Shown: positions 44,692-64,000 of the stretch, piece by piece
Numbering within the stretch: the stretch's first letter is position 1
Layout: each line of letters begins with the position of its first letter
Origin: Planctomycetota bacterium
Lineage (GTDB): Bacteria; Planctomycetota; UBA1135; UBA2386
DNA length: 64,000 bases
NCBI GenBank assembly: GCA_965223545.1
Contig: OZ245006.1
Location: 6,048,001 to 6,112,000, forward strand
Direction: 5' to 3'
The notes under the pieces: generated by a model
What the model was told of the DNA's origin: nothing
Database searches by the model: none
What the model saw: the letters and a program-made list of their open reading frames with translations, nothing else
Made by a program: the position numbers and the translations under genes

Positions 44692-45165
44692 TCAGGCCGC
44701 ACCGTCGCGCGTGCTCTCGCCGCGCCGCCGCGCCGCCTCGTGCTCGTCGCCCGGCACCCGCTGGCCGCGCAGCGCGGCGCGCAGCTCGGCGACCTCGTCC
44801 TGCAGCAGCGTGACCTGGCGGGCCAGGGCCTTGCTGCGAAACGCCAGCCGGGACAGGCGCAGCGACACCAGCAGCGACACCGCCATCAAGAACACCAGTG
44901 CGCCGAAGAACAGCGCCGAGGTCGGCAGCTTGGCGCCGATCGCGCCGGCAAACCAAGACAGCAGCCGCGGCTGCAGCGCGAGTGCCAGCAGGATGACGCC
45001 GGTGCCGATCCACAGCACCGAGTACTCCTCCCGCAGCTTGCGGCGCCGGACGAGCTCGACGACGACGACCAGCATGGTGACCGCGACGCCGATCGCCATC
45101 ACCTGCTGGTGCGTGGTCAGGGTGCTGCCCGACGCCGTCGCCTGCTGGGCGAGGGTGCCGATCAT
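44692..45165 (-). CDS. DUF2304-family membrane protein
   Basis: VRRRKLREEYSVLW, three TM helices and a coiled-coil tail; follows a GT2 gene. Confidence 0.85.
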   Translation of the reverse strand: MIGTLAQQATASGSTLTTHQQVMAIGVAVTMLVVVVELVRRRKLREEYSVLWIGTGVILLALALQPRLLSWFAGAIGAKLPTSALFFGALVFLMAVSLLVSLRLSRLAFRSKALARQVTLLQDEVAELRAALRGQRVPGDEHEAARRRGESTRDGAA

Positions 45166-45905
45166 GCCGGGCTCCTGGCGACGGTCGCGCGGCGCTCCGC
45201 GCGGTACGGCGACCGGCGGCGGACGGGGAGCAGGCACAGCGTGAGCACCATCTTGTAGGCGTAGTACGCGGCGCGCCCGCCGCGGTGCATGCTGACGCCC
45301 CCGCTGCGCTCCCGCATCTGCACCGGCGCCTCGCCCAGCCGCAGGCCGGCGCGGGCGACGATGATCAGCACGTCGGCGTCGGGGTAGTCCTCCGGAAAGC
45401 CGTGGTGGGCGAGCTCGCCGACGGCGGCGGCGTTCATCGCCTGAAAGCCGGACGTCGGGTCGGTGATCGTGGTCCGCGTCCACCACGTCACGATGCGGGC
45501 GAACAGGCTGGCGCCGAGCCGCCGCGCAAGGCTGGTCGGTGGTGGATCGCCGCCGAGGTAGCGCGAGCCGACGACCAAGTCGGCGCCGCTGTCCAGGCCG
45601 CGCAGCAGCACGGCGATGTCGCGGGGGTCGTGCTGACCGTCCGCGTCGAGCTGGACCACGCGCTGGTAGGCGCGCTGCTTGGCGTAGATGTAGCCGGTCA
45701 ACAGCGCCGAGCCGTAGCCGAGGTTGATGCCGTGCCGCAGCACTTTGGCGCCGCGCTGCCGCGCTTCCGCGGCGGTGTCGTCACTGCTGGCGTCGTCGAT
45801 GACGACCACGTCGGCATCGACGGGGGCCCTGGCGATGGCGTCGAGCACGGGACCGATCCGGCCGCGCTCGTTATAGGCGGGAATGATGATGAGGATCGGC
45901 GCCAA
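45162..45905 (-). CDS. Glycosyltransferase family 2 (polyprenol-phosphate sugar synthase-like)
   Basis: IIIPAYNE, IDDASSD, NLGYG, LDADGQH, GSRY and DPTSGF. Confidence 0.92.
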   Translation of the reverse strand: MAPILIIIPAYNERGRIGPVLDAIARAPVDADVVVIDDASSDDTAAEARQRGAKVLRHGINLGYGSALLTGYIYAKQRAYQRVVQLDADGQHDPRDIAVLLRGLDSGADLVVGSRYLGGDPPPTSLARRLGASLFARIVTWWTRTTITDPTSGFQAMNAAAVGELAHHGFPEDYPDADVLIIVARAGLRLGEAPVQMRERSGGVSMHRGGRAAYYAYKMVLTLCLLPVRRRSPYRAERRATVARSPA

Positions 45906-46171: not shown

Positions 46172-47215
46172 ATGAATGCTGCCCGCCTTTCGTTCCTTTC
46201 GACGTTGACCCTCGCCGCCCTCGGCATGGCGCAAGACCCCTTCGCGCCCGCTGCCGAGATGAAGAAGCTCGAGCCGCTGCTCGGCACCTGGGAGGGCACC
46301 GGCACCGTCGTGCCCGAGCCCGGCATGCCGGAGATGCCGTGGACGTCCAAGCACTCCTATGCCCTGGCACTCAATGGCCACTTCGTCCGCGAGGACGTGG
46401 TGATCGAGTTCGGGCCGATGATGCCCGACCCGCTGCAGATGACCACCTACATCGGCTGGGACCGCGAGAATGGCCGCTACGTCACCTGCTCGGCGACCAA
46501 CATGGGCATGGTCGACGTCAACGAGCTGCACTTGATGGGCAACCAGATGGTGCAGGTCGTCGCCGGCGTGGAGAACGGCGTCCCGACGCTCGACCGCTGG
46601 GTGACGGAGTTGGGCGATGGCGTGCAGACGTTCGAAGCGCTGCGCTGCGTCGGCAGTGGCGAGCCGTTCGTGCACCTCACCGGAGAGGTCAAGCGCACCA
46701 GCGAGCAGCCCAACGACATCGCCTGGGCGGATGCCGCCTTCATGTTGCAGCACGACATCAGCCCGATGCAGCACCTGGAGAAGATGGCGGGCACCTACAA
46801 GGTCGCGGGCAACATGATCCCCGCGCCCGGCGCGCCGCCGATGGACATCTCGGCCACCGAGACCGTGGCGATGTGGTTTGGCGGCACCGTCGCTCACATG
46901 CAGACCGCGGGCGATCCGATCGAGGGGATGCCCGGTACCTACGAGGGGGTCAGCTTCATCGGTTGGAACCCGCACAAGGGCCACTTCACCTCGTTCGGCC
47001 TGTCCAACATGGGAGAGGTGCACGCCGGCAAGGGCTGGTGGAGCGACCAGGGCTACGTCACCAACTTCACCGGCATGATGATGGGGCAACCCGCGGTGAT
47101 GCAGGGCGTGGTGCAGGTCGATGACGCCGGTGCCATCACCGGCGTGGTCATGCACCAGGCCGCGGGTGGTGCCGCGCCGGTGACCGCGTTCCAGGCCGGG
47201 TACACCAAGCAATAG
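46172..47215 (+). CDS. Exported protein with two DUF1579-like domains
   Basis: Signal peptide; two similar units (MKKLEPLLGTWEG / MQHLEKMAGTYKV; IGWD...NMG / IGWN...NMG). Confidence 0.7.
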   Translation: MNAARLSFLSTLTLAALGMAQDPFAPAAEMKKLEPLLGTWEGTGTVVPEPGMPEMPWTSKHSYALALNGHFVREDVVIEFGPMMPDPLQMTTYIGWDRENGRYVTCSATNMGMVDVNELHLMGNQMVQVVAGVENGVPTLDRWVTELGDGVQTFEALRCVGSGEPFVHLTGEVKRTSEQPNDIAWADAAFMLQHDISPMQHLEKMAGTYKVAGNMIPAPGAPPMDISATETVAMWFGGTVAHMQTAGDPIEGMPGTYEGVSFIGWNPHKGHFTSFGLSNMGEVHAGKGWWSDQGYVTNFTGMMMGQPAVMQGVVQVDDAGAITGVVMHQAAGGAAPVTAFQAGYTKQ

Positions 47216-47240
47216 GGCGCACCAAGCAATAGGGCGCACC
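47203..47240 (+). repeat. 17-bp tandem duplication over the stop codon
   Basis: caccaagcaatagggcg twice, followed by cacc. Confidence 0.9.
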
Positions 47241-47258: not shown

Positions 47259-48620
47259 TCAGCCCTGCGGCGGCGGATACGACTGGATCGGCCGCCGCTG
47301 GCAGATCGCCGCGATCCGGCGCTCGGCGTCTTGCTGCACGGCCGGGTCGATGCGGTACTCGCGGTCGGAGTCTTGCGTCGTGCCCGCCAGGATGTCGTGG
47401 ATGATGTCCACGCACTCCACCATGTCCGCCGGCTCCATGTGGCGGATCGCCAAGCCGTTGGTGCCGAGGCGAATGCCCGAGGTCACCGACGGTGGGCGGG
47501 TGTCGTAGGGGATGCGGTTCTTGTTGACGACGATGCCGCAGTCTTCGATCGCCTTCTCCGCGTTCACCCCGGTGATGCCCTTCTGCGCGACGTCGACGAC
47601 GACGATGTGGTTGTCGGTGCCACCGGTGATGACGCGGTAGCCCTTGTCCTGAAACGCCGTGGCCAGGGCGCGGGCCAGATCGACGACGCGCTGGGCCACG
47701 CCGCGAAACTCGGGGCTCTGCACGTAGGCGAGACCGCGCGCCTTGGACGCCACCGCGGACTGGTTGGGCGCGCCCTGGAAGAACGGGAACACCTTCTTGT
47801 CGATCATCTGCCCCAACGTCCACTTGCCGTCCGGCGTCTTCTTGTCGTAGTCGACGCCGCACATGACGAGACCGCCGCGGCCGCCGTACAGCTGTTTGTG
47901 CGTGCAGGTCGTGGTGAAGTGCGCGTGGTCGATCGGGTTGGGGTGCAGGCCGGCGGCGACCAGGCCGGCGATGTGGGTGATGTCGGCGAGCACGAAGGCG
48001 CCGACCTCGTCGGCGATCGCGCGAAACCGCGCCCAGTCGATCTGCCGCGAGTACGCCGTCGTGCCGCAGATGATGAGCTTCGGTTTGTGCTCGCGCGCCA
48101 GCGCCTCCATCCGCTCGTAGTCGATGCGCTCATCGGGGGTGAGGCCGTAGCCGATCGCGCGGAACACCTGTCCCGAGATCGACGCCTTGGAGCCGTGCGT
48201 GAGGTGCCCGCCAGAGTCCAGGTCCATGCCCAGCAGGGTGTCGCCGGGGCTCATGGTGCCGAACATCACCACCTCGTTGGCGGACGTCGCCGACATCACT
48301 TGCACGTTGGCGTAGCGCGCGCCGAATGCGCTCTTGGCGCGCTCGATCGCCAAGGACTCGATCTTGTCGATGTACTTGCAGCCGGCGTGGAAGCGCGCGC
48401 CGGGGTAGCCCTCGGCGGTGACGTTCATCGTCGGCATCGCCTCACAGATCAGGGCCGATGGGTCGGCGATGCTGGACGACGCCACCATGGTGAGCACGTT
48501 GGCTTGCCGGCGGTACTCGTCGTCGAGCAGGCGAAAGAGCTCGGGGTCGGCCTGCCGCAGCTTGTCGACGCCGGTGGCGACGAAGCGCGTCAAATTGTCC
48601 GCGGCGGTGGTGGGGTCCAT
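47259..48620 (-). CDS. Serine hydroxymethyltransferase-like PLP enzyme (non-housekeeping variant)
   Basis: AEGYPG, GGHLTHG, DITHIAGLV, THK (PLP lysine), GGTDNH, NKN and SGIRLGT; co-oriented directly downstream of the NRPS. Confidence 0.92.
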   Translation of the reverse strand: MDPTTAADNLTRFVATGVDKLRQADPELFRLLDDEYRRQANVLTMVASSSIADPSALICEAMPTMNVTAEGYPGARFHAGCKYIDKIESLAIERAKSAFGARYANVQVMSATSANEVVMFGTMSPGDTLLGMDLDSGGHLTHGSKASISGQVFRAIGYGLTPDERIDYERMEALAREHKPKLIICGTTAYSRQIDWARFRAIADEVGAFVLADITHIAGLVAAGLHPNPIDHAHFTTTCTHKQLYGGRGGLVMCGVDYDKKTPDGKWTLGQMIDKKVFPFFQGAPNQSAVASKARGLAYVQSPEFRGVAQRVVDLARALATAFQDKGYRVITGGTDNHIVVVDVAQKGITGVNAEKAIEDCGIVVNKNRIPYDTRPPSVTSGIRLGTNGLAIRHMEPADMVECVDIIHDILAGTTQDSDREYRIDPAVQQDAERRIAAICQRRPIQSYPPPQG

Positions 48621-48650
48621 CGTGGGGTCACTCCTCAGTGGCTTGGATAT

Positions 48651-51600
48651 TCAGGCGTCGTTGCCGATGCGGCTCTGCACCTCGTCGTCGGACAGCGCTT
48701 CGATCGCGGCGAGCATCTCGCAGATCTCACCGGCGTCGACTCCGGCCTCGCGGCCGCGGTGCTCGATGAGCGTCGACAGCGCCGCCACCGTGCGCGATTC
48801 GAAGATGTCCGGCAAGGCGATTTCGAACGGGAAGATCTCGCCCAGCCGCGCTTGGATCTGCACTGCCAGCAGCGAGTGGCCGCCGAGGTCCAAGAACGCG
48901 TCGTGGATGCCGACGCGGTCGAGGCCGAGCACGTCGGTCCACACACCGGCCACGACTTCCTGCACCGGGGTCTCCGGCGCCGCGTACGGCGACTCCATGT
49001 CGGGGCGCGAGGTGTCGGGTTCCGGCAGTGCCTTGCGGTCGACCTTGCCGTTGGGCGACAGCGGCAGCTGCTCCATCGGCACGTAAATCGCGGGCACCAT
49101 GTAATCGGGCAGCTGGCTGCCGAGCGCCCGCCGCAGGGTCGGGCCGAGCTGGCGCGCCAGCTTGCCCATCATCGGGTTGTTGGCGAAGTCGGCGGCGGTG
49201 GCTGCCGGGTCGACGGCGAGGCCGGCGCCGTCGGCGAACAGCACGTCGGCCGGCGCATCGCCGGCGCGGTGGAACGCGACGTCGAAGCCGCCCTGATCCA
49301 GCTCCGCCGCAAAGCGCACGTCGCACCGGTAGCCGAGCTCGTCGGCGAGCTGCCACATGGCCTCGGGGTCCAGCGCGGGCGGGGTGTTCGCGTCGATGGC
49401 GGCGCGCAGCGCGCCGGCGGTCGGTGGGCAGTCGGCGGCGGCCAGTGCTTGCACGATGCGCACATCGCGCTCGACCCGGGCGTTGCGCACGCCGCGCAGG
49501 ATCAGTAGCTCGGGCGCGTCGCCTTCGAGCTCGGCGCGCAGCGCCGCGACGTCGGTGCGCTCGTCCCAACGGCGCTCGACCGGTGTCGCGGCCGAGGTCT
49601 TCGCGACGTCGCCGATGTGCAGAGTCACGTCGTAGCGGAACTTGTTGAGCTCGTTGTGGAAGTCGCCGCGCTTGAGCTGGATCTGCACGAACCCGATCTC
49701 CGGCAGCTGCGTCTGCAGCCACGCGAAGAAGCGTGGGTCGATGACCAGCTCCTCTTCCTGTCGGATCAGCCGCTGGACCCGGGCGCGCAGCGTGTCGCAG
49801 GTGGCGTCGTCCGCCGCCTGGAACAGCTGCACCGAGCTCTGGTACGCGGTCAGCATCGGCAGACCGCGGACGTCGCCGACGAAGATCACGCCGCCCGGGC
49901 GCACTGCCTTGGCCGAGCCGCGCAGCACGTCCATCAGGTAGTCCATGCTCGGGAAGTCGAGCACGATCGAGTTGAGCACCACCGCGTCGAGACTGTCTTC
50001 GGCGATGCCCTCGAAGTTGTCGGCCCAGCGCCGGTCGAGGTGGACCTGCTCGAGCGCGCGCTGCTGCGCGTGGCGGTGGACGTAGTCGAGGGCCACCGTC
50101 GAGAAGTCGGTGCCCATGTAGTGCGAGCAGTGCGGCGCGATGCGGAACAGCAACAGCCCCATGCCGCAGCCGATCTCCAGCACGCGGTCGGGCGCGCGCG
50201 CCCGGATCCGTTCGACCGTCTGCTCGACCCACACCCGCATCTCGGCTTCCGGGATCGGCTGGTTGGTGTAGGACGAGTCCCAGCTGACGATGTTGAACGT
50301 CGGGTCGTCGCCGCCGTCGACGTTGGCGCTGTAGGCGTGGTCGTACACCGCCTGCCACTGCTCGACCTGCTCGTTGCTGAGCTCGTCGGCATCGCCCTCG
50401 GGACCGCGCCAGTCGGGGTCTTGCACGACGTAGGCGACCAGCCGCTTCTCGCCGGCGGCGTCGGTCTTGGTCACGACCACACCTTCGCGCACCGCCTCGT
50501 GGTCGCGCAGCCGCGCCTCGATCTCACCGAGCTCGATGCGGTAACCGCGGATCTTGACCTGGTTGTCCATCCGGCCGAGCAGCTCGAGGTTGCCGTCGGG
50601 CATCCACCGCGCCAGGTCGCCGGTGCGGTACATCCGCGCGCCCTCGGCCTTGGCGAACGGGTCGGTCAGAAAGCGCTCGGCGGTGAGCTCGGGCCGCTGG
50701 AAGTAGCCCTCGCCGACGCCGATCCCGCCGAGGAACAGTTCGCCCGGCACGCCCACCGGCAGCGGCTGCAAGTGGACGGGGTCGAGCACGTAGGCCAGCT
50801 GGTTGGCCATCGGCTCGCCGTAGGGAATGCTGTGCCACGCCGGGTCGACCGCACCGATCTCGTAGATGGTCGAGTCCATCGAGCACTCGGTGGCTCCGCC
50901 CATGCTGATCACCCGGCACTCGGGCAGCAGGGCGCGCAGCCGGTCCGGTAGGGTCACCGGAATCCAGTCGCCGCCGAGCAGCACCAACCGCAGGCTCTGC
51001 GGCACTTGGTCGGTGTGCACCTCGAGGTGGTCGACCAGCATCTTCAGCATCGCCGGTGCGGTGTGCCAGACCGTGACGCCGCGGGCGCTCATCAGCGCGG
51101 CCCAGTGCGGTGGATCCTGCAGCTTGTCGGGGTCCGGCAGCGCGATGGTGGCGCCGGCCGCCAGGATGCCGAACACGTCGTAGGCGCACATGTCGAACGA
51201 CAGCGACGCCAGGGCGATCAGCGCGTCGCCGGGTCCGACGTGGAAGCGGCGGTTGAAGTCGAGGAAGTTGTTGACCCGGCCGCGGTGGTTGAGGACCACG
51301 CCCTTGGGCGCACCGGTCGAGCCCGAGGTGTAGATGACGTACGCCAGATTGGTGCTGCGCACGCCGGCGTCGGGCGGCGTCGCCGGTTGGTCGGCCGCGG
51401 TGGCCGGGTCGTCGACGAACACCAGGCGGGCGTCGGTCGCCGGCATGGTGTCGGCGAGGTGGCGCTGGGTCAGTACCACGCCGACCTTGGAGTCGTCGAC
51501 CATGTAGGTCAGCCGCTCGCGGGGGTAGGCCGGATCCATCGGCAGGTAGGCGCCGCCGGCCTTGGCGATCGCCAGCAGGCCGACGACCATCTCCAACGAC

Positions 51601-52469
51601 CGCTCCACCGAGATGCCGACCATTTGGTCGAGCTGCACGCCGAGCCCGCGCAGGTGGTGGGCGAGTCGGTTCGCGCGGGCATCCAGCTCGGCGTAGCTCA
51701 GCGTCGCGTCGCGAAACGCGCAGGCGATCGCGTCGGGTTGGGCCGCGACCTGCTGCTCGAACAGACCGTGCAGGGTGGCGTCGCGCGGAAAGTCGATCGC
51801 CTTGTCGTTCCAGCCGTACAGGATCTGCTGGCGCTCGGTGTCGGTGAGCAGGGGGAGCAGGCCGACGGCGGTGTCGGGGGACGCGGCGACGCCGCCGAGC
51901 AGGGTGGCGAGGTGGCCGGCGGTGCGGGCGATGGTGTCGTCGTCGAACCGCTCCGCGTCGTAGTCGAACGCGCAGCCGTGCGCGTCGAACCCGAGGACGA
52001 GCTCGGTCGTCGCCGCCGCGCCCGAGCCATCGGTGTCGGCGCGACACGCGACCTGGAACAAGCACGCGTCGGGCTCGCCGATCGCGCGGGCGATCTGCGC
52101 GAGGGGCAGCGTGTGCTCACGCGCCGCCGCCATTTGCGCGCGCACGTGCGCGACGATCGCGGCGAACGTCGCGTTGCCATCGATCGACAGCCGCAACGGC
52201 ATCGGCCCCGTCGGCTGCAGCACGCCGATCACCAAGTCGGTCTGTCGGGTGACGCGGTGCAGCAGCACGGCGCAGGCGGCGACCTGCGCGGCGGGCTCGT
52301 CGCCGACCACGCCGCGGGCCGAGGCGTCGAGCGGGTGGTGGGCGTGCGCGGCGCGGGGGGGGTGGTCGGCGGCGCGCGTGCGCAGAGTTGGCAGCTCGAG
52401 CGCCGGTGGGCGTTCGCTGAGCGCGTCGCGCCAGTAGGACGGGGCGTCGGGAGCGTTGGCCTGTGACAT
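48651..52469 (-). CDS. NRPS: partial C, A domain interrupted by a methyltransferase, T
   Basis: YTSGSTGAPKG, GGATE, YRTGDL and QVKIRGYRIELGEIE; MT motif VLEIGCGMG; PLSPNGKVDR; T motif LGGHSLL. Confidence 0.95.
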   Translation of the reverse strand: MSQANAPDAPSYWRDALSERPPALELPTLRTRAADHPPRAAHAHHPLDASARGVVGDEPAAQVAACAVLLHRVTRQTDLVIGVLQPTGPMPLRLSIDGNATFAAIVAHVRAQMAAAREHTLPLAQIARAIGEPDACLFQVACRADTDGSGAAATTELVLGFDAHGCAFDYDAERFDDDTIARTAGHLATLLGGVAASPDTAVGLLPLLTDTERQQILYGWNDKAIDFPRDATLHGLFEQQVAAQPDAIACAFRDATLSYAELDARANRLAHHLRGLGVQLDQMVGISVERSLEMVVGLLAIAKAGGAYLPMDPAYPRERLTYMVDDSKVGVVLTQRHLADTMPATDARLVFVDDPATAADQPATPPDAGVRSTNLAYVIYTSGSTGAPKGVVLNHRGRVNNFLDFNRRFHVGPGDALIALASLSFDMCAYDVFGILAAGATIALPDPDKLQDPPHWAALMSARGVTVWHTAPAMLKMLVDHLEVHTDQVPQSLRLVLLGGDWIPVTLPDRLRALLPECRVISMGGATECSMDSTIYEIGAVDPAWHSIPYGEPMANQLAYVLDPVHLQPLPVGVPGELFLGGIGVGEGYFQRPELTAERFLTDPFAKAEGARMYRTGDLARWMPDGNLELLGRMDNQVKIRGYRIELGEIEARLRDHEAVREGVVVTKTDAAGEKRLVAYVVQDPDWRGPEGDADELSNEQVEQWQAVYDHAYSANVDGGDDPTFNIVSWDSSYTNQPIPEAEMRVWVEQTVERIRARAPDRVLEIGCGMGLLLFRIAPHCSHYMGTDFSTVALDYVHRHAQQRALEQVHLDRRWADNFEGIAEDSLDAVVLNSIVLDFPSMDYLMDVLRGSAKAVRPGGVIFVGDVRGLPMLTAYQSSVQLFQAADDATCDTLRARVQRLIRQEEELVIDPRFFAWLQTQLPEIGFVQIQLKRGDFHNELNKFRYDVTLHIGDVAKTSAATPVERRWDERTDVAALRAELEGDAPELLILRGVRNARVERDVRIVQALAAADCPPTAGALRAAIDANTPPALDPEAMWQLADELGYRCDVRFAAELDQGGFDVAFHRAGDAPADVLFADGAGLAVDPAATAADFANNPMMGKLARQLGPTLRRALGSQLPDYMVPAIYVPMEQLPLSPNGKVDRKALPEPDTSRPDMESPYAAPETPVQEVVAGVWTDVLGLDRVGIHDAFLDLGGHSLLAVQIQARLGEIFPFEIALPDIFESRTVAALSTLIEHRGREAGVDAGEICEMLAAIEALSDDEVQSRIGNDA

Positions 52470-52833
52470 CGGCGGTTGCGGCCGGCCGCATCCGGAACGG
52501 GCCCGAGCGACCGGGGGAGGAGGGCGAGGTGGAGGGATGACGAGACCGGCTGCGGGACCCGACCCGGGTCTGCTCGATGGTCGCAAATTCACTCTAGCTC
52601 GCGTTTTGGGGGCGTGCAAGGCGAGTGGATCCACACCCTTTCCACGGCCGCGGCCGCCGGGTCGAGGCCTCGACCCGCGGGCGCGCGGCGTTGTATTCTT
52701 CCCCGTTCTCCACAGGCCGGTCGGCAGGGCTGGCAGCGGTGCTCGGGGTCCGACGCACCGCGCGCCGAACTTGCCGCATTTCGCTGTCGCCACCGGCGTT
52801 GCAACGCCCGCCGGACGGGGAGCTCAACGACCC

Positions 52834-53874
52834 ATGCACGACACCTCACCGAAGAAGCCGCTCCCCAGGACGACCCGCCGGCGCGTATCCGGCGGCGGAG
52901 CTGCCGGGGTCCGTCTCGGCCCGCTGGGCCAGGCCGCCATCCCGCAGGTCGTGCGGCCCGCGGTCGACGGCACCGATCTGCTGGCCTGGGCCACCGCCAA
53001 CCTCGACACCCTCGACGGTTGGCTGCTGCAGCACCGCGCGCTGTTGTTCCGCGGGTTCGGCGTGCGCGCGGTCGAGCAGTTCGAGCAGTTCGTGCGCGCG
53101 ACATCCGACGGCAACCTGCTCGAATACCGCGACCGCACCACGCCGCGCACCACCGAGGGCAATCGCATCTACACCGCCACGGTGCACCCGGCCGACCAGC
53201 GCATCAACCCGCACAACGAAGGCACGTATTGGACGCGGTGGCCGCAGAAGCTGTACTTCTGCTGCCTCACCGCGCCGCGCAGCGGCGGCCAGACGCCGAT
53301 CTGCGACGTGCGCCGGGTCTATGAGCGCATCCCCGCCGAGGTGCGCGCGCCGTTCGAGGCCAAGGGCTTCATGCTGGTGCGCAACTACAACGACGGCTTC
53401 GGCCTGCCGTGGCAGGAGGTGTTCCAGACCGAGGACAAGGCGGAGGTCGAGAGCTTCTGCCGCGCCAACGACATCGAGTTCGAGTGGAAGTCCGGTGGCC
53501 GGCTGCGCACGACCCAGGTGCGGCCGTGCGTGCGCACGCATCCGCGCACGAATGAGAAGGTATGGTTCAACCACGCGGTGTTCTACCACTCCACCACGCT
53601 GGACCCGGCGACGCGGGAGGCCCTGGTCGGCGAGTTCGGCGAGAGCGGCCTGCCCTACAGCACTTGCTACGGCGACGGCTCGCCGATTCCGGCCGATGCC
53701 GCCGCCGCGGTGCGCGCCGCCTACGCCGCTGAGACGACGATGTTCTCGTGGCAGCCGGGCGACGTGATGCTGCTCGACAACATGAGCGTCGCGCACGCGC
53801 GCGAGCCCTACGAGGGCGAGCGCATGGTGCTGGTGTCGATGACCGACGCGATGGGCGACGGGGACGCGGCATGA
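52834..53874 (+). CDS. TauD/TfdA (SyrP-like) Fe(II)/2-oxoglutarate dioxygenase
   Basis: ALLFRGF, PHNE, GGQTP, VWFNH and WQPGDVMLLDNMSVAHAREPY. Confidence 0.93.
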   Translation: MHDTSPKKPLPRTTRRRVSGGGAAGVRLGPLGQAAIPQVVRPAVDGTDLLAWATANLDTLDGWLLQHRALLFRGFGVRAVEQFEQFVRATSDGNLLEYRDRTTPRTTEGNRIYTATVHPADQRINPHNEGTYWTRWPQKLYFCCLTAPRSGGQTPICDVRRVYERIPAEVRAPFEAKGFMLVRNYNDGFGLPWQEVFQTEDKAEVESFCRANDIEFEWKSGGRLRTTQVRPCVRTHPRTNEKVWFNHAVFYHSTTLDPATREALVGEFGESGLPYSTCYGDGSPIPADAAAAVRAAYAAETTMFSWQPGDVMLLDNMSVAHAREPYEGERMVLVSMTDAMGDGDAA

Positions 53875-56800
53875 CCGAGGTGACGCAGGCCAACGCGGTC
53901 GAGGGCTTTCGGCTATCGCCGCAGCAGCGCGATCTCTGGCGCCAGCAGATGGCGGCGGGTGCGGCCGCGTTCGCGGCGAGTGCTGCGGTCGAGATCGAAG
54001 GCGCGATCGACGCGGAGCGGCTGGCGCGCGCGCTGGAGGTGGTGGTCGGCCGTTACGAGATCTTGCGCACCGGCTTCCACAGCGTGGCGGGGGCGAGCCT
54101 GCCGGTGCAGGTGATCGGCGAGGCGGGTGGTGTCTCGGTCGCGGCGGAGCCGGTGACGGCGCCGTGGGCGGACGCAGCGGCTCTGCGGAAACCGCCGTTG
54201 TTGCATATCGCCTTGCAGCCCGCCGGCGATCGCAGCCGCCTGACGCTCACCGTTCCCGCCCTGTGTGCCGACGCGATCGGCTTGCACAACACCGTGGCCG
54301 CCTTGGCGGCGGTCTACTCCGGTGCCGAGGACGGCGACGAGCCGCTGCAGTACGCGGATCTCGCCGAATGGCAGAACGAGCTGCTGGAGGACGCCGACGC
54401 GCGCGCGTTCTCGCTGCGGGTGGCCGACGCCCGCGCGACCCTACCCGGCGTTCGTGCCGGGGCGGCCACCGCGGCGCAGGACGTGCTCCGGCAGGCGTTG
54501 CCGGCGGAGCTCGGCCAGGCGCTCGCCGCTGTGGCCGAACGGCGGCGGACGACGGTCGAGGTGGTCTGTCTGGCGGGCTTCGCCGCGCTGGTGCACCGTT
54601 TGACCGGGCGCGAGCAAGTCTTGCTCGGCGCGCGCGCCGATGGCCGCGCCTACGAGGGCCTCGATCGCGCCATCGGCCTGTTCGCGCGCGACGTCCCGGT
54701 CTCGGTGTTCGTCGATGGCGAGCGACCGTTCGCCGCGGTGGTCGACGATGCCGCCGCGGCGTGGAGCTCGGCGGGCGAGCGCGTCGAGCAGTTCTCGTGG
54801 GAGCGCGTGGAGGATGCCACCGAGGCGCCGTACTTCGCGCTGGCGTTCGCCGCCGAGGATCGCTCGCAGGTGTTCGCGGTTGGCGATGCCCGGTGGACCG
54901 TTGTCGGGACACGCGCGCACACGCAGCACGCCGACGTCCGCGTGCTGGTCGTGCGCGATGTCGATGGCTGGGCGATGGAGCTGCACGGCGACGCGGCGCG
55001 GGTCGATCGTGCCGCGGCGGCGCGCTGGCTCGACCAGCTGATCGCGCTGCTGGCGCACGCCGCGGACGAGGTCGACACCCCGGTCGGCGCGCTTCGCCTG
55101 CTCGATGCAAACGCCGCCGCCGACATGCTGCGCCGCTTCAACGCGGCCACAGCGCCCGTCGATACCGACCGCACCATCCACGCCACGATCGAGGCCGCGG
55201 TCGACCGTGACCCGAACGCGGTGGCCGTGCAGGCCGTCGACGGCGCCCTGACCTATGGCGAGCTCGAGCGCCGGGCCAACCAGGTCGCGCACCTGCTGCG
55301 CGACCTCGGCGTCGGAGTGGACGACCGCGTGGGCCTGTGCCTGGAGCGCTCGGCGTCGATGCTGGTCGGGCTGCTCGGCATCCTCAAGGCGGGCGCGGGC
55401 TACGTGCCGCTCGATCCGGGTTATCCGCGCGACCGGCTGGCGTTCTTGCTGGCCGACAGCGGCGCCCGCGCAGTGGTCACCGACGCCGCGGGTGCCATGG
55501 CGCTGCCGCCGCACGAAGTCGCGACGTTGTGCTTGGATGGGGATGCCGAGCGGCTGGCCGCGGCCAGTGCCGATCGGCCGCAGCCGGTGGCGGCCGCCGA
55601 TCATCTGGCGTACGTGATCTACACCTCGGGCTCGACCGGCACGCCGAAGGGCGTCGAGATCACGCATCGCACGCTGCTGCACTCGACCCTGGCGCGCGAG
55701 GCGGTCTACCCCGAGGCGCCCGGGCGCTATCTGTTGGTGTCGAGCTACGCCTTCGACAGCTCGGTCGCCGGTTTGTTCTGGACCGCGGTCAGCGGCGGGG
55801 CGCTGGTGCTGCCGGGCCAGGGGCTGGAGCGCGACCTGCGCGCGCTGCGCCAGCTGATCGATACCCACGCGGTGACCCACACCCTGATGCTGCCGTCGCT
55901 GTACACGACCTTGCTGCGGGAGACCGGCGGTGAGGGCATGCGGTCGTTGCGCTGCGTGATCGTCGCCGGTGAGGCGTGCTCGCGCGACACCGTCGATCTG
56001 CACCACGAGCTGCTGCCGGATGCGGGCTTGTGGAACGAGTACGGGCCCACCGAGGGCACGGTGTGGGCGACCGTCCACCATTGCGTGGCGGCCGACGAGG
56101 CCGCCCGCGTGCCGATCGGCGTGCCGATCCGCAACGTCCAGGCCTACGTGCTCGACGCGGCCGGTGGGCCGCTGCCGGTGGGTGTGCCGGGCGAGCTCTA
56201 CATCGGCGGTGACGGTCTGGCGCGCGGCTACCTCGGGCGGCCGGAGCTGACCGCCGAGCGGTTCGTGCGCAACCACCTGGCGGAGACGCCGGGCGATCGG
56301 CTGTACCGAACCGGTGACCTGGTTTGCCGCCGTGACGACGGCGCGCTCGACTTCCTCGGCCGCGTCGACCACCAGGTCAAGGTGCGTGGCTATCGCATCG
56401 AGCTCGAAGAGGTCGAGGCCGCCCTGGTCGAGCTCGACGGCATCGCCGAGGCCGCAGTGGCGGCACCGACGGCGGACGACGGCGCCGCGCGCCTGGTCGG
56501 CTACGTCGTGCCGGCCGCCGGCAGCACGCCGTCCACCGCGGCGATCGCCGATGCGCTGCGGGCGGCGCTGCCCGACTACATGGTGCCCGCGCAGTGGGTC
56601 GTTCTCGACGCGCTGCCGCTCAACCCCAACGGCAAGGTCGATCGCGCCGCCTTGCCCGAGCCCGCCGACGGTGCTGTCGACCGGCCCACTTACGCCGCGC
56701 CGCAGGGGGCGGTGGAGACGGTGCTCGCCGAGCTCTGGGCGGACGTCTTGCAAGTGGAGTCGGTCGGGCGCGAGGACAATTTCTTCCAGCTCGGCGGCCA

Positions 56801-57032
56801 CTCGCTGTTGGTGACCCAGCTGGTGTTCCGCGTGCGCGATACGCTGGGCGTGGAGATGCCGCTGCGCTTGGCGTTCGAGGCGCCCACGCTGGCGGCGCTC
56901 GGCGAAGCGCTGCTGGCCGATCCCGACCGCCGCGCCCGTGCAGAGAAGGCGGCCGCCCTGATCGAGCAGCTGTCGGCCATGTCGGAAGACGAGGTCGATG
57001 CCATGCTCGAGAGCGAGGATCGGCCGGACTGA
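53871..57032 (+). CDS. NRPS: degenerate C (interface-like), A, T
   Basis: EGFRLSPQQ; PALCAD in place of HHxxxD; YTSGSTGTPKG, NEYGPTE and YRTGD; T motif LGGHSLL; ATGA-coupled to the dioxygenase gene. Confidence 0.95.
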   Translation: MTEVTQANAVEGFRLSPQQRDLWRQQMAAGAAAFAASAAVEIEGAIDAERLARALEVVVGRYEILRTGFHSVAGASLPVQVIGEAGGVSVAAEPVTAPWADAAALRKPPLLHIALQPAGDRSRLTLTVPALCADAIGLHNTVAALAAVYSGAEDGDEPLQYADLAEWQNELLEDADARAFSLRVADARATLPGVRAGAATAAQDVLRQALPAELGQALAAVAERRRTTVEVVCLAGFAALVHRLTGREQVLLGARADGRAYEGLDRAIGLFARDVPVSVFVDGERPFAAVVDDAAAAWSSAGERVEQFSWERVEDATEAPYFALAFAAEDRSQVFAVGDARWTVVGTRAHTQHADVRVLVVRDVDGWAMELHGDAARVDRAAAARWLDQLIALLAHAADEVDTPVGALRLLDANAAADMLRRFNAATAPVDTDRTIHATIEAAVDRDPNAVAVQAVDGALTYGELERRANQVAHLLRDLGVGVDDRVGLCLERSASMLVGLLGILKAGAGYVPLDPGYPRDRLAFLLADSGARAVVTDAAGAMALPPHEVATLCLDGDAERLAAASADRPQPVAAADHLAYVIYTSGSTGTPKGVEITHRTLLHSTLAREAVYPEAPGRYLLVSSYAFDSSVAGLFWTAVSGGALVLPGQGLERDLRALRQLIDTHAVTHTLMLPSLYTTLLRETGGEGMRSLRCVIVAGEACSRDTVDLHHELLPDAGLWNEYGPTEGTVWATVHHCVAADEAARVPIGVPIRNVQAYVLDAAGGPLPVGVPGELYIGGDGLARGYLGRPELTAERFVRNHLAETPGDRLYRTGDLVCRRDDGALDFLGRVDHQVKVRGYRIELEEVEAALVELDGIAEAAVAAPTADDGAARLVGYVVPAAGSTPSTAAIADALRAALPDYMVPAQWVVLDALPLNPNGKVDRAALPEPADGAVDRPTYAAPQGAVETVLAELWADVLQVESVGREDNFFQLGGHSLLVTQLVFRVRDTLGVEMPLRLAFEAPTLAALGEALLADPDRRARAEKAAALIEQLSAMSEDEVDAMLESEDRPD

Positions 57033-57052
57033 GGCGTCCGCGCAGAGGCACG

Positions 57053-57856
57053 ATGAATCCGTTCTTCTTCGGCAGCTCCGAGCGGCAGCTGTTCGGCGTT
57101 CACCACCCACCAGAACGCGGCGGTGTGCGCGACAGCGCGGTGCTGATTTGCCCGCCGTTCGGCGCCGAGCACATCGCGGCCCACCGCGCGCTGCAGCAGC
57201 TCGCCGCTCGGCTGGCGCGGGGTGGCTTCCACGTGCTGCGCTTCGACTACTCGTGCACCGGCGATTCCGCGGGTGACGGCGAGGAGGCGCGCTTCGACGA
57301 TTGGGTCGCCGACGTCGGCACCGCGGCGCAAGAGCTGCGGGACACGAGCGGTGCGTCCAAGCTCAGCGTCGTCGGTCTGCGGCTGGGGGCGACCAGCGCG
57401 GCGGTGGCAGCGGCTGCCGGCGGGCTGGGTCCGCTGCACGCCTGCGTGCTGTGGGAGCCCATCGTCGATGGGGACGCCTATCTGCAGTGGTTGGCCGAGC
57501 GGCAGGCCGACTGGGTGCGGCGCACCTACCCCAAGCCCAAGCCGCAGACGCTCCAATGGCGGGTGCCCGAAGTGCTCGGCTTTCCACTGCCGGTGGCGCT
57601 GCAGGACGCGCTGCGCGCGCAGCGCCTGACCGATTTGGCCGCCTCGCCCGCACCGCGCGTGTTGTTGGTGACCAACGAGGGCACGGCGGCGGCCGAGCCG
57701 CTGCGCGCCGCGCTCGATGGCTCGGGCGCGGCGGTCGAATTGCGCGATGTTGCCGCCGAGCCGTGCTGGGTCGGCCACGCCGGTGGCACGATCGCGCTGG
57801 TGCCGGTCGAGGTCCAGCAGTCGATCGCTGCCTGGCTCGGGGAGGCGCACGGGTGA
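57053..57856 (+). CDS. Alpha/beta hydrolase-fold protein lacking a nucleophile (GLRLG type)
   Basis: LICPPFGAE, LRFDYSCTGDS, VGLRLG and LWEPIVDG. Confidence 0.85.
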   Translation: MNPFFFGSSERQLFGVHHPPERGGVRDSAVLICPPFGAEHIAAHRALQQLAARLARGGFHVLRFDYSCTGDSAGDGEEARFDDWVADVGTAAQELRDTSGASKLSVVGLRLGATSAAVAAAAGGLGPLHACVLWEPIVDGDAYLQWLAERQADWVRRTYPKPKPQTLQWRVPEVLGFPLPVALQDALRAQRLTDLAASPAPRVLLVTNEGTAAAEPLRAALDGSGAAVELRDVAAEPCWVGHAGGTIALVPVEVQQSIAAWLGEAHG

Positions 57857-58755
57857 GGGAGGCCGTCGTTCGCTTCGGTGCGCAGAAGTCGCTGGTCGGT
57901 GTGGTCACCGATCCGGAAAACGGCACCGCCACCGGCGGGCTCGGTTGCGTGTTCTTGAACGCTGGCTTCACGCCGCGCATCGGGCCGCAGCGGCTGTCGG
58001 TTCTGCTCGCCCGTCGGCTGGCGGCGATCGGCATTCCCGCTCTGCGGTTCGACTTCTCCGGCATCGGCGACAGTCCGAGTCGGCAGGACAACATGTCGTT
58101 TGCCGACAGCACGGTGTCGGAGACCCAAGAAGCGATGAGTCTGCTCGCCGCCACGCGCGGGGTGCAGCACTTCGTCTTGATCGGTGTCTGTTGGGGCGCC
58201 GACAACGCGCTGCGCGTCAGTCAGGTCGACGAACGCGTCGTCGGGGTCGGCGCAGTCGACTTCTACGCGCTGTTCTCGATGCGGTATCTGGTGCGTACCC
58301 ACCGCGGCCGGTTGGCGGATCCGCGCAGCTGGTGGCGGTTGTTGCGCGGCGCCAGTCCGGCGATCGGCCGCGCGCTCGGTGGCCTGCTCGAACTGGCCAA
58401 GCAGCGGCGCGCGGCGCGTGGCGACACCTCGGGGGACCTGCTGCCCGTCAAAGCGCCGGCGACCGTCGTCGCCGAGCTGCGCGCGGGCATCGAACGCGGG
58501 GTCGAGATGTGCTTCGTGTATGCGCGCGGGGCTCCGAGCTACGATCAATACGTGATGAACTTCGCCGCGCCGATGCGCGATCTGGAGGGGCCGGGCCGAC
58601 TGCGCATCGAGCTGTTCGATGACGCGGACCACGTGTTCACTCTGCTGAGCAACCAAGGCGCGTTGATGGACGCGCTCGTGGAATGGACCCGGCAGCTGGC
58701 GGCGCGCCGCGCCGCCGCGGGCGGCCCGACGGTGTCGGAGTCGTTGACTCACTGA
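57853..58755 (+). CDS. Alpha/beta hydrolase with Cys at the nucleophile elbow (GVCWG)
   Basis: NAGFTPRIGPQR, LRFDFSGIGDS, GVCWGA and ADHVF; GTGA overlap. Confidence 0.85.
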   Translation: MREAVVRFGAQKSLVGVVTDPENGTATGGLGCVFLNAGFTPRIGPQRLSVLLARRLAAIGIPALRFDFSGIGDSPSRQDNMSFADSTVSETQEAMSLLAATRGVQHFVLIGVCWGADNALRVSQVDERVVGVGAVDFYALFSMRYLVRTHRGRLADPRSWWRLLRGASPAIGRALGGLLELAKQRRAARGDTSGDLLPVKAPATVVAELRAGIERGVEMCFVYARGAPSYDQYVMNFAAPMRDLEGPGRLRIELFDDADHVFTLLSNQGALMDALVEWTRQLAARRAAAGGPTVSESLTH

Positions 58756-58766
58756 GGCGGAGGGCA

Positions 58767-61325
58767 GTGCGCTTGAGCTCGTTGATCGAGTCGCGGTCGA
58801 GTGACACGGCGCCGCTTTCGTTCGCGCAGCGGCGGATCTGGTTCCTGTCGCAGATCGAGGATGCGGCCCCGGCCTACAACATGCCCGTGCAGTTGCGCGT
58901 GCGGGGCTCGTTGGACACAGCAGCGCTCGACACTGCGCTGGCCGGCGTCGTGCGGCGCCACCGGGTTTTGCGCAGCCGGATCGTGCGCGATGGCGAGCAG
59001 CTCCTGCAGGTCACCCAGCCGCCGCTGTCGAGCGTGCTGCAGGTCGTCGACCTGCGCGGTGCGCGGGATCCGGAGCAGGAGGTGCGCGCGATCGCCCGGG
59101 CCGAGGCCGGTCAGGTGTTCGATCTCGAGGCGGGTTCGTCGCATCGCTTCGTGCTGGCGCGCGTCGCCGACGAAGACTGGGTGTTGCTGCTGACGTTGTC
59201 GCACCTGGTCGCCGACGGCTGGTCGGTCGGCGTCCTCTTGCACGAGGTCTCGGTGGGCTATGCCGCGGCGCGGCGGGGGGTGGCCGCCGAGCTACCGGAG
59301 CTGGCGCTCCAGTACGGCGAGTTCGCCGCCTGGCAGCGCGACCACCTCGGTCGCGTGACGTTGCAAGAGGAGTTGGACTACTGGCGGCGACAGCTGGCGG
59401 ATCTGCCGGTGCTGCGTTTGCCGAGCGACCACCCCCGCCCCGAGCGGCAGACCTTCGTCGGCCGACAGCTGCGTTTTCGGATCGATGCGGAGCTGGCGGG
59501 GGCAGTGCGACGGCTGGCGGGCGAGTGCCGGGCGACGTTCGGCATGACGCTGCTGGCCGCCTTCCAAGCGTTGCTGTCGCGGTGGAGTGGCCAGCTGGAC
59601 TTCGCGGTGGGAACGCCGGTGGCCAACCGCCAGCCGCCGGAGACCGAGCCGCTGATCGGGCTGTTCTTGAACAACCTCGTGCTGCGCGCCGACCTGCGGG
59701 GCGAGCCGTCGTTTGCGGAAGTCGTGCGGCGTACCGCGGCGACCATGGTGGTTGCCATGGAGCACCAGCAGCTGCCGTTCGAAGAGCTCGTCGCGGCGCT
59801 GCGGCCCCCGCGCGACTTGGGCCGGAGTCCGCTGTTCGACGTGATGTTCAACTTCCTGAGCGAACCGCACGTCGACGCTCAGCTGGCGGGGGTCGCGGTG
59901 GAGGAGTTCGGCTTCGAGGGATTCACTGCCAAGTTGGACCTGACCCTGGGGCTGCGCCCGCGCGAGGACGGCATCGAGGGGGTGGTCGAGTACAACAGCG
60001 ACCTGTTCGACGAGGCCACCGTCGAGGCCATGCGCGACGAGTACTTGGCTGTGCTGCGCGCGGTGACCGCCGACCCGGAGATTGCGTTGGCACGGCTCCC
60101 GGTGCGCGGCGTGGCGGCAGCCTTGCCGACTCCCGCGCCGGCCGAGGTGGCGGCTCCGGCTCCTCCGCGCGGCCCGATCCAGCGCTTCTTGGCCAAGCTC
60201 TGGTGCGAGGTGTTGGAGCTCGACGAGGTGTCGGTGCACGACAACTTCTTCGACCTCGGCGGCCACTCGCTGCTGGCGATGCGCGTCGCGGTCCGCATCG
60301 AGGAGCGGTTGGGCGTTCGCGTGCAGCCGATGGAGCTCCTGGTCAACACCCTCGAGCAAATGGCGCGCCGGTGTTCGGTGCCCGCATCCGCCCCGGCGTC
60401 TGCGCAACCGACCGTGGCTGTCGAGGCGGCTCCGGTCGCCGTCGCCGCGGCCACCGGGGCGGCGATGGTCGATGGCGAGATCCGCGAGACGGCGGTGTCG
60501 TTCGGTCCCGCTGGCAGCGTCGTCGGGGTGCTCGCCGAGCCGGCCGACGAGGAGCTGCGCCGGGGGGTCGGAGTCACCCTGCTCAACGCCGGCGCCACGC
60601 CGAGGCTCGGGCCGCAGCGATTGTCGGTCAAGATCGCGCGCCGCTTGGCGCGGCTGGGCTATTGCTCGCTGCGCTTCGACTACAGCGGCATCGGCGACAG
60701 CCCGAGCCAGCGCGACGGTCTCTCCTACCAGGAGCGCGGCGTGCAGGAAGTGCGCCAGGCGTTCGACTTCCTCGCCGAGGCGCGCGGCGTGCCCGCGTTC
60801 GTGCCGATGGGGATGTGTTGGGGGGCCGACAACTCGATGCGCACGGCGCTCGCCGACCCGCGCGTCGCGGGCGCGCTGCTGTTCGATTTCTACGCCCGCC
60901 CCTCAGCGCGCTACTTGACGCGCCTCTACGCCCGAAGGCTGCTTTCACCGCACAGCTGGCGCAACTTCGTCGGCGGCAAGAGCTCGGTGCTGCGCTACCT
61001 GGTCGAAGCCGTGCAGCACCGCACCCGAGGCGACCGCGTCGACGTCGAGGACCCGTTCGCCGTCCCCGAGCCGACCGAGGCCGACTTCGCCACTCTGGTC
61101 GAGCGCGGCGTGCGGCTGTGTCTCGTCTACGCCAACGGCGCTCCATCGTACGACCACTACCGCTACCGGTTCCGCCCGTGGCTGGAACGCCATCCACAAT
61201 CGATCCAAGTGCGGCTGCTACCCAACGCCGACCACCTGGTCACCCTGCTCGCCAACCAGGACGCCTTCGTCGAGATCATCGCCACCTGGATGCAAGACCA
61301 AGCCGCCGCCGACCCACGCTTCTGA
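58767..61325 (+). CDS. NRPS: C, T and Cys-type alpha/beta hydrolase (no A domain)
   Basis: LSFAQRRIWF, SHLVADGWS, IGLFLN, HQQLPFE and FFDLGGHSLL, then LRFDYSGIGDS, GMCWGA and ADHLV. Confidence 0.93.
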   Translation: MRLSSLIESRSSDTAPLSFAQRRIWFLSQIEDAAPAYNMPVQLRVRGSLDTAALDTALAGVVRRHRVLRSRIVRDGEQLLQVTQPPLSSVLQVVDLRGARDPEQEVRAIARAEAGQVFDLEAGSSHRFVLARVADEDWVLLLTLSHLVADGWSVGVLLHEVSVGYAAARRGVAAELPELALQYGEFAAWQRDHLGRVTLQEELDYWRRQLADLPVLRLPSDHPRPERQTFVGRQLRFRIDAELAGAVRRLAGECRATFGMTLLAAFQALLSRWSGQLDFAVGTPVANRQPPETEPLIGLFLNNLVLRADLRGEPSFAEVVRRTAATMVVAMEHQQLPFEELVAALRPPRDLGRSPLFDVMFNFLSEPHVDAQLAGVAVEEFGFEGFTAKLDLTLGLRPREDGIEGVVEYNSDLFDEATVEAMRDEYLAVLRAVTADPEIALARLPVRGVAAALPTPAPAEVAAPAPPRGPIQRFLAKLWCEVLELDEVSVHDNFFDLGGHSLLAMRVAVRIEERLGVRVQPMELLVNTLEQMARRCSVPASAPASAQPTVAVEAAPVAVAAATGAAMVDGEIRETAVSFGPAGSVVGVLAEPADEELRRGVGVTLLNAGATPRLGPQRLSVKIARRLARLGYCSLRFDYSGIGDSPSQRDGLSYQERGVQEVRQAFDFLAEARGVPAFVPMGMCWGADNSMRTALADPRVAGALLFDFYARPSARYLTRLYARRLLSPHSWRNFVGGKSSVLRYLVEAVQHRTRGDRVDVEDPFAVPEPTEADFATLVERGVRLCLVYANGAPSYDHYRYRFRPWLERHPQSIQVRLLPNADHLVTLLANQDAFVEIIATWMQDQAAADPRF

Positions 61326-61326: not shown

Positions 61327-61400
61327 GTACGGAGTCCGGCTCGATTTTCTCGCTTGGCGGCGGTAGCCGCCAAGCGAGAAAATCGAGCCGGACTCCGTAC
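61327..61400. repeat. Perfect 35-bp inverted repeat with 4-nt loop (REP doublet or bidirectional terminator-like)
   Basis: gtacggagtccggctcgattttctcgcttggcggc-GGTA-exact reverse complement. It fills the gap between convergent genes. Confidence 0.9.
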
Positions 61401-63998: not shown

Positions 63999-64000
63999 GA

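Follow-up and report, generated by a model that had tools for sequence, protein, structure and literature searches.

How can a peptide be assembled and released by a gene cluster with three carrier (T) domains, two adenylation (A) domains, a single condensation (C) domain that keeps its catalytic His, and no thioesterase (TE)? This question is raised by seven genes at positions 47259-61325 of a 64,000-nt stretch of DNA (the window) from a Planctomycetota bacterium (GenBank assembly GCA_965223545.1, contig OZ245006.1). The window corresponds to C1:6048001-6112000 (C1, contig of the window's genome) of an 8.1-Mb, two-contig genome with a completeness of 91%. The genes encode three nonribosomal peptide synthetase (NRPS) proteins (N1, N2 and N3), a serine hydroxymethyltransferase (SHMT*), a TauD-family dioxygenase and two α/β-hydrolases (H2 and H1). 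Judged by orthology, the cluster is not self-contained, and the condensation enzyme missing from it is encoded 839 kb away; because this orphan C lies elsewhere in the genome, the unequal count of domains is resolved outside the cluster. Whether the locus comprises the beginning and the end of an NRPS dispersed over the genome is in our view evenly balanced. The following features were identified:

48620-47259, minus strand: SHMT*, 453 aa, PF00464
52469-48651, minus strand: N1, half-C stub-A-N-methyltransferase (MT)-T, 1272 aa, Pfam
52834-53874, plus strand: TauD-family dioxygenase, 346 aa, PF02668
53871-57032, plus strand: N2, His-less C-A-T, 1053 aa, Pfam/NCBIfam
57053-57856, plus strand: H2, α/β-hydrolase with Arg elbow GLRLG, 267 aa, TIGR03101-like
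57853-58755, plus strand: H1, α/β-hydrolase with Cys elbow GVCWG, 300 aa, TIGR03100-like
58767-61325, plus strand: N3, C-T-H1 (GMCWG), about 852 aa
61327-61400, no strand: perfect 35-bp inverted repeat with a 4-nt loop, directly after the N3 stop codon

Gene calls, Pfam and NCBIfam bear out a preliminary description of this locus as regards the seven genes, their domain orders and motifs and the convergent neighbours on both sides (46172-47215, plus strand; 61404-64352, minus strand), and the active-site motifs agree with its count of three carriers, two A domains and one C domain with catalytic His, that of N3. The starts of the seven genes were refined (that of N3 is uncertain by a few codons), and their GC content at third codon positions (GC3) is 0.86-0.94. 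N2, H2, H1 and N3 form one tightly packed operon (intergenic gaps of 20, -4 and 11 nt), and the TauD gene overlaps N2 by 4 nt. As had been stated, the Pfam/NCBIfam scan of the seven proteins gave no match to PF00975 thioesterases, MbtH, transporters or regulators; furthermore, no siderophore transporter or TonB receptor was found in the cluster. In the whole genome (91% complete), MbtH had no match and phosphopantetheinyl transferase had one. A promoter/terminator scan of the locus performed no better than chance. The closest homologues of the cluster are mostly found in records of Planctomycetota metagenome-assembled genomes (MAGs).

Starter cassette and a distant condensation enzyme

The best PDB match of SHMT* is 7qcw (453 bits; other chains at most 380), which we take to be PbzB, although the PbzB paper prints PDB 7QWZ; the motif of 7qcw lies at T76/H86, with the same spacing as in the paper. 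Both proteins share the loop of the pyridoxal phosphate-binding Lys (TTCTHKQ), and the motif TAEG..RFH of SHMT* keeps the Thr and the His of the TAEG..RYH found in 7qcw. According to the available text of PMC10098953, TAEG..RYH instead of YAEG..RYY (T68/H78) marks PbzB-type SHMTs, and the enzymes bearing it make α-methylserine or 2-hydroxymethylserine; the available text of PMC13351049 agrees with this. By its motif, SHMT* is classified as a PbzB/FmoH-type SHMT, which very likely supplies an α,α-disubstituted serine; between α-methyl-Ser and 2-hydroxymethyl-Ser the sequence does not discriminate. A second SHMT of the genome (C1:2253843, 39% identical to SHMT*) is presumably the housekeeping enzyme.

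SHMT* has twelve close homologues at 71-77% identity, each preceded by an orthologue of N1 with or without MT. The C domain of N1 is reduced to its C-terminal half, its A domain is interrupted by the N-methyltransferase, and its C-terminus is an acidic docking helix. The MT domain has its best PDB match in 5wmm (E 2e-45), which we take to be the N-methylating A-MT of TioS. The PDB search with the A domain was not diagnostic, as 6lta (presumably FmoA3) and the Cys-type BmdB score alike. The A code is DMYHLGMMDK; of 21 readable relatives, 19 have exactly this code and two have variants, one further locus being unreadable. The available text of the single paper returned by a literature search with this code does not contain it. 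Among the 119 matches listed for the A core, 66 have the two diagnostic motifs, 36 of these together with an MT, and those close N1 orthologues (73-83%) among the matches listed that carry an organism name are all MAGs. N1 is predicted to be the starter module for the N-terminal residue; the co-inheritance of both genes and the type of the MT make it likely that it activates and N-methylates the product of SHMT*.

Of 301 genomes sampled in the order, 23 contain SHMT*; they include 20 of the 136 from a single family and 1 of the 90 others belonging to the window's family. Across the phylum, SHMT* was found in 4 of 301 sampled genomes. The product of the starter cassette (SHMT*, A-MT-T and His module), with its 23 genomes in the order, is undescribed as far as we found. 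Cassettes at 71% SHMT identity were also seen on short contigs in records titled Phycisphaerales and Pseudohongiellaceae (L001 and L002; labels such as L001 or G009 denote loci or genomes of relatives), a placement due to either misbinning or transfer.

The A code of N2, DSALIAEVWK, is given in the available text of PMC12283262 as a His code, with β-OH-His accepted. The active site of the N2 C domain reads TVPALCADAIG, with both His of HHxxxDG absent, and this domain and its equivalents from relatives belong to a clade of 15 rows made up of His-less C domains (SH-aLRT 99; this and all other supports for C-domain clades come from a quick tree of 68 rows). It appears to be interface-like, a class drawn here from the His loss and the adjoining TauD gene and set beside interface (I) domains by description; PDB searches with the N2 C domain and with TauD returned generic relatives only (generic C domains for the former). 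TauD keeps the metal ligands HNE...H, is 50-65% identical to the TauDs in the cassettes of five relatives, and is predicted to be a carrier-bound His β-hydroxylase. In view of the code match, we are confident that N2 loads His and that TauD β-hydroxylates it. The carrier of N2 is canonical, and its C-terminal helix is acidic.

Several relatives have no TauD at the locus and possess instead a 2-ketoarginine-methyltransferase-like gene and a HisC-like transaminase, together with the code DSVLIAEVFK; this suggests that the β-carbon of residue 2 is modified in more than one way across the relatives. A sister form of the cassette (L186, L194, L195, L199, L217 and L220; no TauD in the stretches covered) contains such a 2-ketoarginine-methyltransferase-like gene and a HisC-like transaminase, a different stand-alone C, a His-like module and a polyketide synthase (PKS), and in several genomes also H2/H1, a type II thioesterase and a sulfotransferase. 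Its product may be a β-methyl-His. In other phyla (L119, L162, L167 and L177), loci with A-T, P450, stand-alone C (three of four), C-A-T, H2 and H1 have the P450 in the place of the window's TauD. The window's genome encodes an orphan second TauD at C1:3969454-3970485 (L201; 54-56% identical to the cluster TauD). In G009, the N2 orthologue (L097, 16644-19544) shifts frame shortly before the carrier domain, which represents either an assembly error or a real lesion.

In nine of the twelve close SHMT* loci, a stand-alone C gene directly follows SHMT* (twice fused to TauD). The window has no such gene; the orthologue is located at C1:6948540-6950072, 839 kb off, among unrelated genes, and keeps the active site HHIVSDG. 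This orphan C and 11 SHMT*-adjacent C domains form a clade (SH-aLRT 100). With profiles built from the relatives only, the orphan C was the sole strong match in the genome for the docking head (E 5.8e-8), and N1 the sole strong match for the tail (E 2.9e-10). In G009, the sole relative with the window's gene order, the counterpart of the orphan C (63% identity) is encoded on another contig as well. Its orthology and co-occurrence with the cassette make it highly probable that the orphan C forms the bond between N1 and N2, presumably by binding to the N1 tail. Cluster-centred mining would thus misread this lineage, with an essential C 0.84 Mb from its modules and the same split recurring in a relative, and expression of the seven genes alone would probably fail.

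The H2/H1 pair and its carriers

H2 scores 105 bits against TIGR03101 (cut-off 203), and H1 and the H1 domain of N3 score 80 and 80 bits against TIGR03100 (cut-off 168). The two hydrolases are distantly akin to each other (HHalign 98.9%). In H2, R110, H44 and W134 are invariant in all 56 aligned sequences, with Arg at the nucleophile position, and H2 is predicted to be a non-catalytic partner. H1, in which C113 is kept in 60 and H260 in 61 of 62 rows, is predicted to be an acyl-transfer subunit with a Cys nucleophile; its model has an α/β-hydrolase fold (pLDDT 90), and all structural matches listed are at most 18% identical. The modelled H1:H2 heterodimer reached an ipSAE of 0.91 (best of three controls, 0.00), a measure whose mark is reached by 116 of 157 solved pairs and 2 of 215 mismatched pairs. 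Runs with alignments built for this analysis agreed in at least 77% of contacts with a partner pLDDT of at least 89, and the interface takes in the conserved His44/Arg45 of H2 and the residues flanking His260 of H1. The model supports binding of H1 and H2 to each other.

Such pairs are widespread: in several phyla they come after carriers without a TE, often at glycan loci. Among the 120 long homologues listed, 118 carry H2 and H1 in a single chain, which in one case is fused to a GT2 and in another to a flippase; a fusion of H1 to an NRPS was found only in N3 and its G009 orthologue. From 80 H1-family loci of many phyla, 8 without gene calls were excluded. Both H2 and H1 are present in 63 of the remaining 72 and NRPS/PKS genes in 60; at least one glycan gene is present in 27, all among the 50 loci of at least 15 kb, a count that stands without a background rate. 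Searching plasmids with H1 yielded 24 records, each below 60% identity and annotated as hypothetical protein or α/β hydrolase.

The NRPS modules directly before H2 mostly have Gly codes, and their carriers share a feature that we designated T*, namely Gln at position +30 after the phosphopantetheine Ser. Of 45 carriers immediately preceding H2, 44 have it, compared with 9 of the 61 remaining carrier motifs of these loci; 8 of these 9 exceptions are, on inspection, seemingly terminal carriers with the H pair fused or nearby. This Gln lies in a shortened link between helices II and III. In the window's genome, the T* signature is present in N3 and C1:3060508, nearly so in C1:2526821, and absent from N1, N2 and the other modules. 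This distribution accounts for the presence of a free H1 next to the fused one, and it speaks against a direct uptake of His from N2 by H1. For this unstudied pair, the signature provides a sequence rule for the carriers that would be unloaded, and together with the small soluble proteins encoded here it makes the function of TIGR03100/03101-like proteins directly testable.

N3 and the course of the chain after N2

The C domain of N3 has the active site SHLVADG. The orthologue of N3 in G009 is a TubC_N-C-A-T-H1 protein of 1459 aa with the A code DILQLGMVWK, of which the one-residue variant DILQLGMIWK is assigned to Gly in the available text of PMC12283262. N3 is thus a glycine module from which the A domain and the docking head have been lost in frame. 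Its 852 codons have no stop or frameshift, with a GC3 of 0.90. Identity to the orthologue is 45% for C, 62% for T and 48% for H; the neighbours have 48-58% (N2), 55% (H1) and 57% (H2). The N3 C domain groups with TubC_N-type modules, and the N3 carrier is closest to theirs (58% and 53%). In the fused H1 domain, 21 of 29 positions of the modelled H2 interface are identical to the free H1, vs 116 of 285 overall. The C-T-H1 architecture occurs once among the 120 long homologues listed. A misassembly was considered and rejected, as a contig from a public run spans 56500-60268 with 0 differences and bridges the C-T junction. The run holding it is probably from the source sample and represents an independent assembly rather than an independent population; three other runs gave short pieces only, none across the C-T junction among the matches listed, and no RNA run was listed as containing this DNA.

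In relatives without H1 (L223, L237 and L238), C-A-T-C-A-T-TE comes after the His module, either immediately or at a distance of up to about 30 kb, often with a sulfotransferase; those ending the line in a GxSxG TE are among the 12 of the 23 SHMT*-bearing order genomes without an H1 match. Another six genomes have SHMT* and H1 no more than about 20 kb apart on the same contig. Next to the cassette, 7 of the 12 close SHMT* loci have genes for an MBOAT, its partner and a hexapeptide acyltransferase, and one relative's cassette sits in a Wza/Wzc/flippase locus; the MBOAT was dropped as a candidate release enzyme, since the same genomes have TE-ended bimodular NRPSs. In the window's genome, an orphan C-A-T is encoded at C1:8052081, whose C domain groups with the C domain of the relatives' third module (support 97). 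Besides, a dozen other NRPS/PKS genes are scattered over the genome (five with Gly codes); three NRPS genes bear a TE (e.g. the module at C1:302579), and the two orphan Gly modules at C1:3060508 and C1:2526821, with T*-type or near-T* carriers, have no release domain.

These elements could be joined in the following scheme, in which we infer the chemistry, the order of modules after N2, the loading of N3 and the acceptor. SHMT* would make the α,α-disubstituted serine, to be activated and N-methylated by N1. His would be loaded by N2 and β-hydroxylated by TauD, which the dead C domain of N2 would recruit. The orphan C would join both residues in trans, its basic head fitting the acidic tail of N1. 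The dipeptidyl chain would pass, probably via C1:8052081, to a terminal T* carrier (N3 T, C1:3060508 or C1:2526821), a transfer for which we see even chances; N2 is tied to T* by the operon in two genomes and the proximity of SHMT* and H1 in six more. The H2:H1 heterodimer would then move the chain from T* to the Cys of H1 and on to an acceptor, replacing the thioesterase. The modelled pairing and the conserved position render this mode of release fairly likely, with a sugar or glycolipid somewhat likelier than water as the acceptor. The A-less N3 would be loaded with glycine in trans, possibly in the manner of SyrC/CmaE by the free H1:H2 shuttling Gly between T* carriers, an idea that we regard as tentative and somewhat doubtful. 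The product would probably start with (N-Me)-α-substituted-Ser-β-OH-His, and by general coordination chemistry such an Xaa-His start should bind Cu, Ni or Fe.

The SHMT motif, the A codes and the MT match support the methylated serine-type residue and the β-hydroxy-His of the preliminary description. Its proposals of assembly in trans and of non-canonical release are likewise supported. Its picture of a compact, self-contained system making a very short product through the C domain of N3 does not hold, as the orphan C is elsewhere, the relatives' His module continues, and N3 is a former Gly module; the alternative it had named, a fragment of a larger NRPS encoded elsewhere, is in part what was found.

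A wider form of the scheme is unlikely, although it would mean a new mode of NRPS termination making metal-binding peptidyl-glycans: in uncultured Planctomycetota, single-module genes scattered over the genome would form a docking-encoded NRPS/PKS network in which T* and the Cys/Arg heterodimer take the place of the thioesterase and put finished peptides, such as the one considered here, on surface glycans or glycolipids, while free H1:H2 also loads N3 with Gly. Glycan transfer is suggested by gene context and the two fusions (GT2 and flippase). The peptidylamido-glycan of C. difficile was rejected as an NRPS precedent, as PMC5207246 contains neither "NRP" nor "non-ribosomal".

Several observations weigh against the dispersed NRPS ending in H2:H1. 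The step from N2 to T* is its weakest link: nothing directly ties the end of the His line to the H pair, the N2 carrier being canonical, and a separate Gly/PKS line would agree equally well with the docking elements. The N2 tail is not matched by the tail profile, the head of C1:8052081 reached no better than E 0.16 with the docking-head profile, and N3 has no docking head. Furthermore, the code of C1:8052081 is DAWFLGHVVK vs DALFAGCVIK in the relatives' third module. The only carrier protein with an acidic tail resembling a short linear motif (EREEIEI) is the PKS at C1:3079464; the head-tail pairing rule for TubC_N docking would suggest that the TubC_N head of the N3 orthologue is better suited to this tail than to that of N2. 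The N3 C domain sits on a long branch (1.01 vs 0.54 for the orthologue) of what is a quick tree, and the kin genomes are not independent. As to the acceptor, 45 of 72 H loci have no glycan gene by clustering, the window has no operonic glycan genes (its GT2 lies 1.3 kb past SHMT* across an unrelated gene), and the MBOAT relatives also have a TE, so that glycan context does not imply transfer. The score of the complex may in part be a memory of solved esterase dimers.

Some of this evidence would also fit two pathways meeting at the locus, which we consider rather unlikely. SHMT*, N1, the orphan C, TauD and N2 would feed C1:8052081 and an ordinary TE module elsewhere (e.g. C1:302579) and yield a free short peptide, and H2, H1 and N3 would end a separate Gly/PKS line encoded at C1:3.05-3.08 Mb with TubC_N docking. 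The relatives without H1 do end their His line in a GxSxG TE, the genome has its own TE-bearing genes, N3 C and T resemble TubC_N-type modules, and the sole acidic carrier tail of this kind belongs to the PKS; however, N2, H2, H1 and N3 share a single tight operon with the order kept in G009, and the six further genomes have SHMT* close to H1.

Two other readings concern N3 itself. H1 might shuttle β-OH-His from N2 to the N3 carrier, the N3 C domain join it to the N1 residue, and the fused H1 release the dipeptide, in a way comparable to SyrB1/SyrC/SyrE. The A-less C-T-release architecture, the two H1 copies and the intact N3 gene with its high GC3 agree with this, and C-T-H1, seen once among the homologues listed, may be a local innovation; yet both this genome and G009 have kept an intact orphan C that matches the N1 tail, the N2 carrier has no T* signature, and N3 derives from a Gly module. 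A self-contained dipeptide pathway is very improbable in our judgement. A relic, contributing a spare H1 domain at most, would be consistent with the loss of two domains from N3, the long branch of its C domain and the existence of two orphan Gly modules whose carriers are of the T* or near-T* type and which have no release domain; such TubC_N-C-A(Gly)-T* modules and the free H1:H2 would then finish the chain. On the other hand, the reading frame is uninterrupted, the identity to G009 is like that of the neighbours, and N3 retains its catalytic His, carrier Ser, Cys elbow and H2 interface, so that we hold a relic to be improbable. We retain the dispersed assembly line as the working scheme.

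Related systems and neighbouring features

All parts of the system come from known or catalogued families, and trans-acting NRPSs are already known; what is new is a non-linear NRPS variant, an undescribed product and an unstudied release device. Literature searches, which did not cover subscription journals and MIBiG, returned no paper on the H2/H1 pair or the starter cassette and, in line with the preliminary description, no characterised match to the cluster.

The SHMTs of benzobactin (PbzB), JBIR-34/35 (FmoH) and ashimide (AsmD) biosynthesis are, according to the available text of PMC10098953 and PMC13351049, also dedicated TAEG..R[YF]H enzymes encoded beside free-standing NRPS genes; they have the same Thr/His pocket residues and supply an α,α-disubstituted serine. 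Unlike in these pathways, the window has no benzoxazolinate or oxazoline machinery, and its residue would stand first in the peptide, usually in N-methylated form, with a stand-alone C linking it to His. The coupling of TauD to a His-less C domain followed by A-T with a His code resembles the TauD and interface modules of siderophore NRPSs, an arrangement mentioned in the available text of PMC12971057 and PMC10212144. In contrast to these, the cluster has no siderophore transporter or TonB receptor. Metallophore clusters combine a chelator pathway with uptake or export genes; here a β-OH-His route is predicted, and the cluster contains no transporter. The TauD β-hydroxylase/interface-domain and β-OH-His modules of siderophore NRPSs were reportedly described by Reitz in 2019.

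TIGR03101 and TIGR03100 ("hydrolase 2" and "hydrolase 1, exosortase A system-associated", of unknown function) show the same order of Arg elbow and Cys elbow as H2 and H1. The window proteins differ in scoring at about half the cut-offs and in the second H1 fused to an NRPS module (2 of the 120 long homologues listed), and the scan of the flanking genes revealed no exosortase/PEP-CTERM exopolysaccharide (EPS) operon at the locus; exosortase was not searched for elsewhere in the genome. Syringomycin (SyrB1/SyrC/SyrE module 9) and coronamic acid (CmaE) biosynthesis provide an A-less C-T-release module and a Cys hydrolase acting as aminoacyl shuttle. N3 is similarly an A-less terminal C-T-release protein, and H1 has the Cys and the His base in an α/β-hydrolase fold; unlike SyrC and CmaE, H1 belongs to a different family that would need an Arg-elbow partner, N3 descends from a Gly module, and no SyrC/CmaE-like enzyme is among the structural matches of the H1 model. 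DltABCD and AlgIJ-type systems acylate the cell envelope by means of an MBOAT. The seven SHMT* loci with an MBOAT group resemble them, differing by their TE-ended module, whereas the window has no MBOAT nearby. A Dlt/AlgI-like unit is, judged by its gene content, present elsewhere in the window's genome (L203, C1:2830972-2838352), in which two divergent MBOAT genes are accompanied by AlgX-like and GDSL partners and by a small carrier protein. Beside a polysaccharide flippase, the genome encodes a homologue of the sulfotransferase linked to the cassette (L215, C1:1535038-1537682), and two C-A-T-KS-AT-KR hybrids (L207, 168-9434; L210, 683-10462) have DH and ER C-terminal to KR.

The inverted repeat at 61327-61400 has 13 copies of at least 60 nt in the genome, its own included, and is a genome-wide element resembling repetitive extragenic palindromes or miniature inverted-repeat transposable elements (REP/MITE-like), not specific to the cluster; it is probably the terminator of the N3 operon. 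The gene behind it (window 61404-64000, continuing to 64352, minus strand) encodes a 982-aa membrane protein with a GT-C/PMT-like N-terminal part (by its Atlas neighbours), six paralogues in the genome and homologues near the cassette in G224 and G266. It was rejected as a member of the system, since the search yielded no more than the seed sequences from 36 cassette-related loci and nothing from the 80 H loci. On the other side, a 17-nt tandem duplication (window 47198-47231) lies across the stop codon of a DUF1579 gene between the convergent genes, and this gene intervenes between SHMT* and a DUF2304 and GT2 glycosyltransferase pair (window 44692-45905, 1.3 kb past SHMT*). Farther off in the window, gene calls inspected by eye show a pilus/type II secretion-like gene run (9755-14356) and a transposase-like gene (25634-27412).

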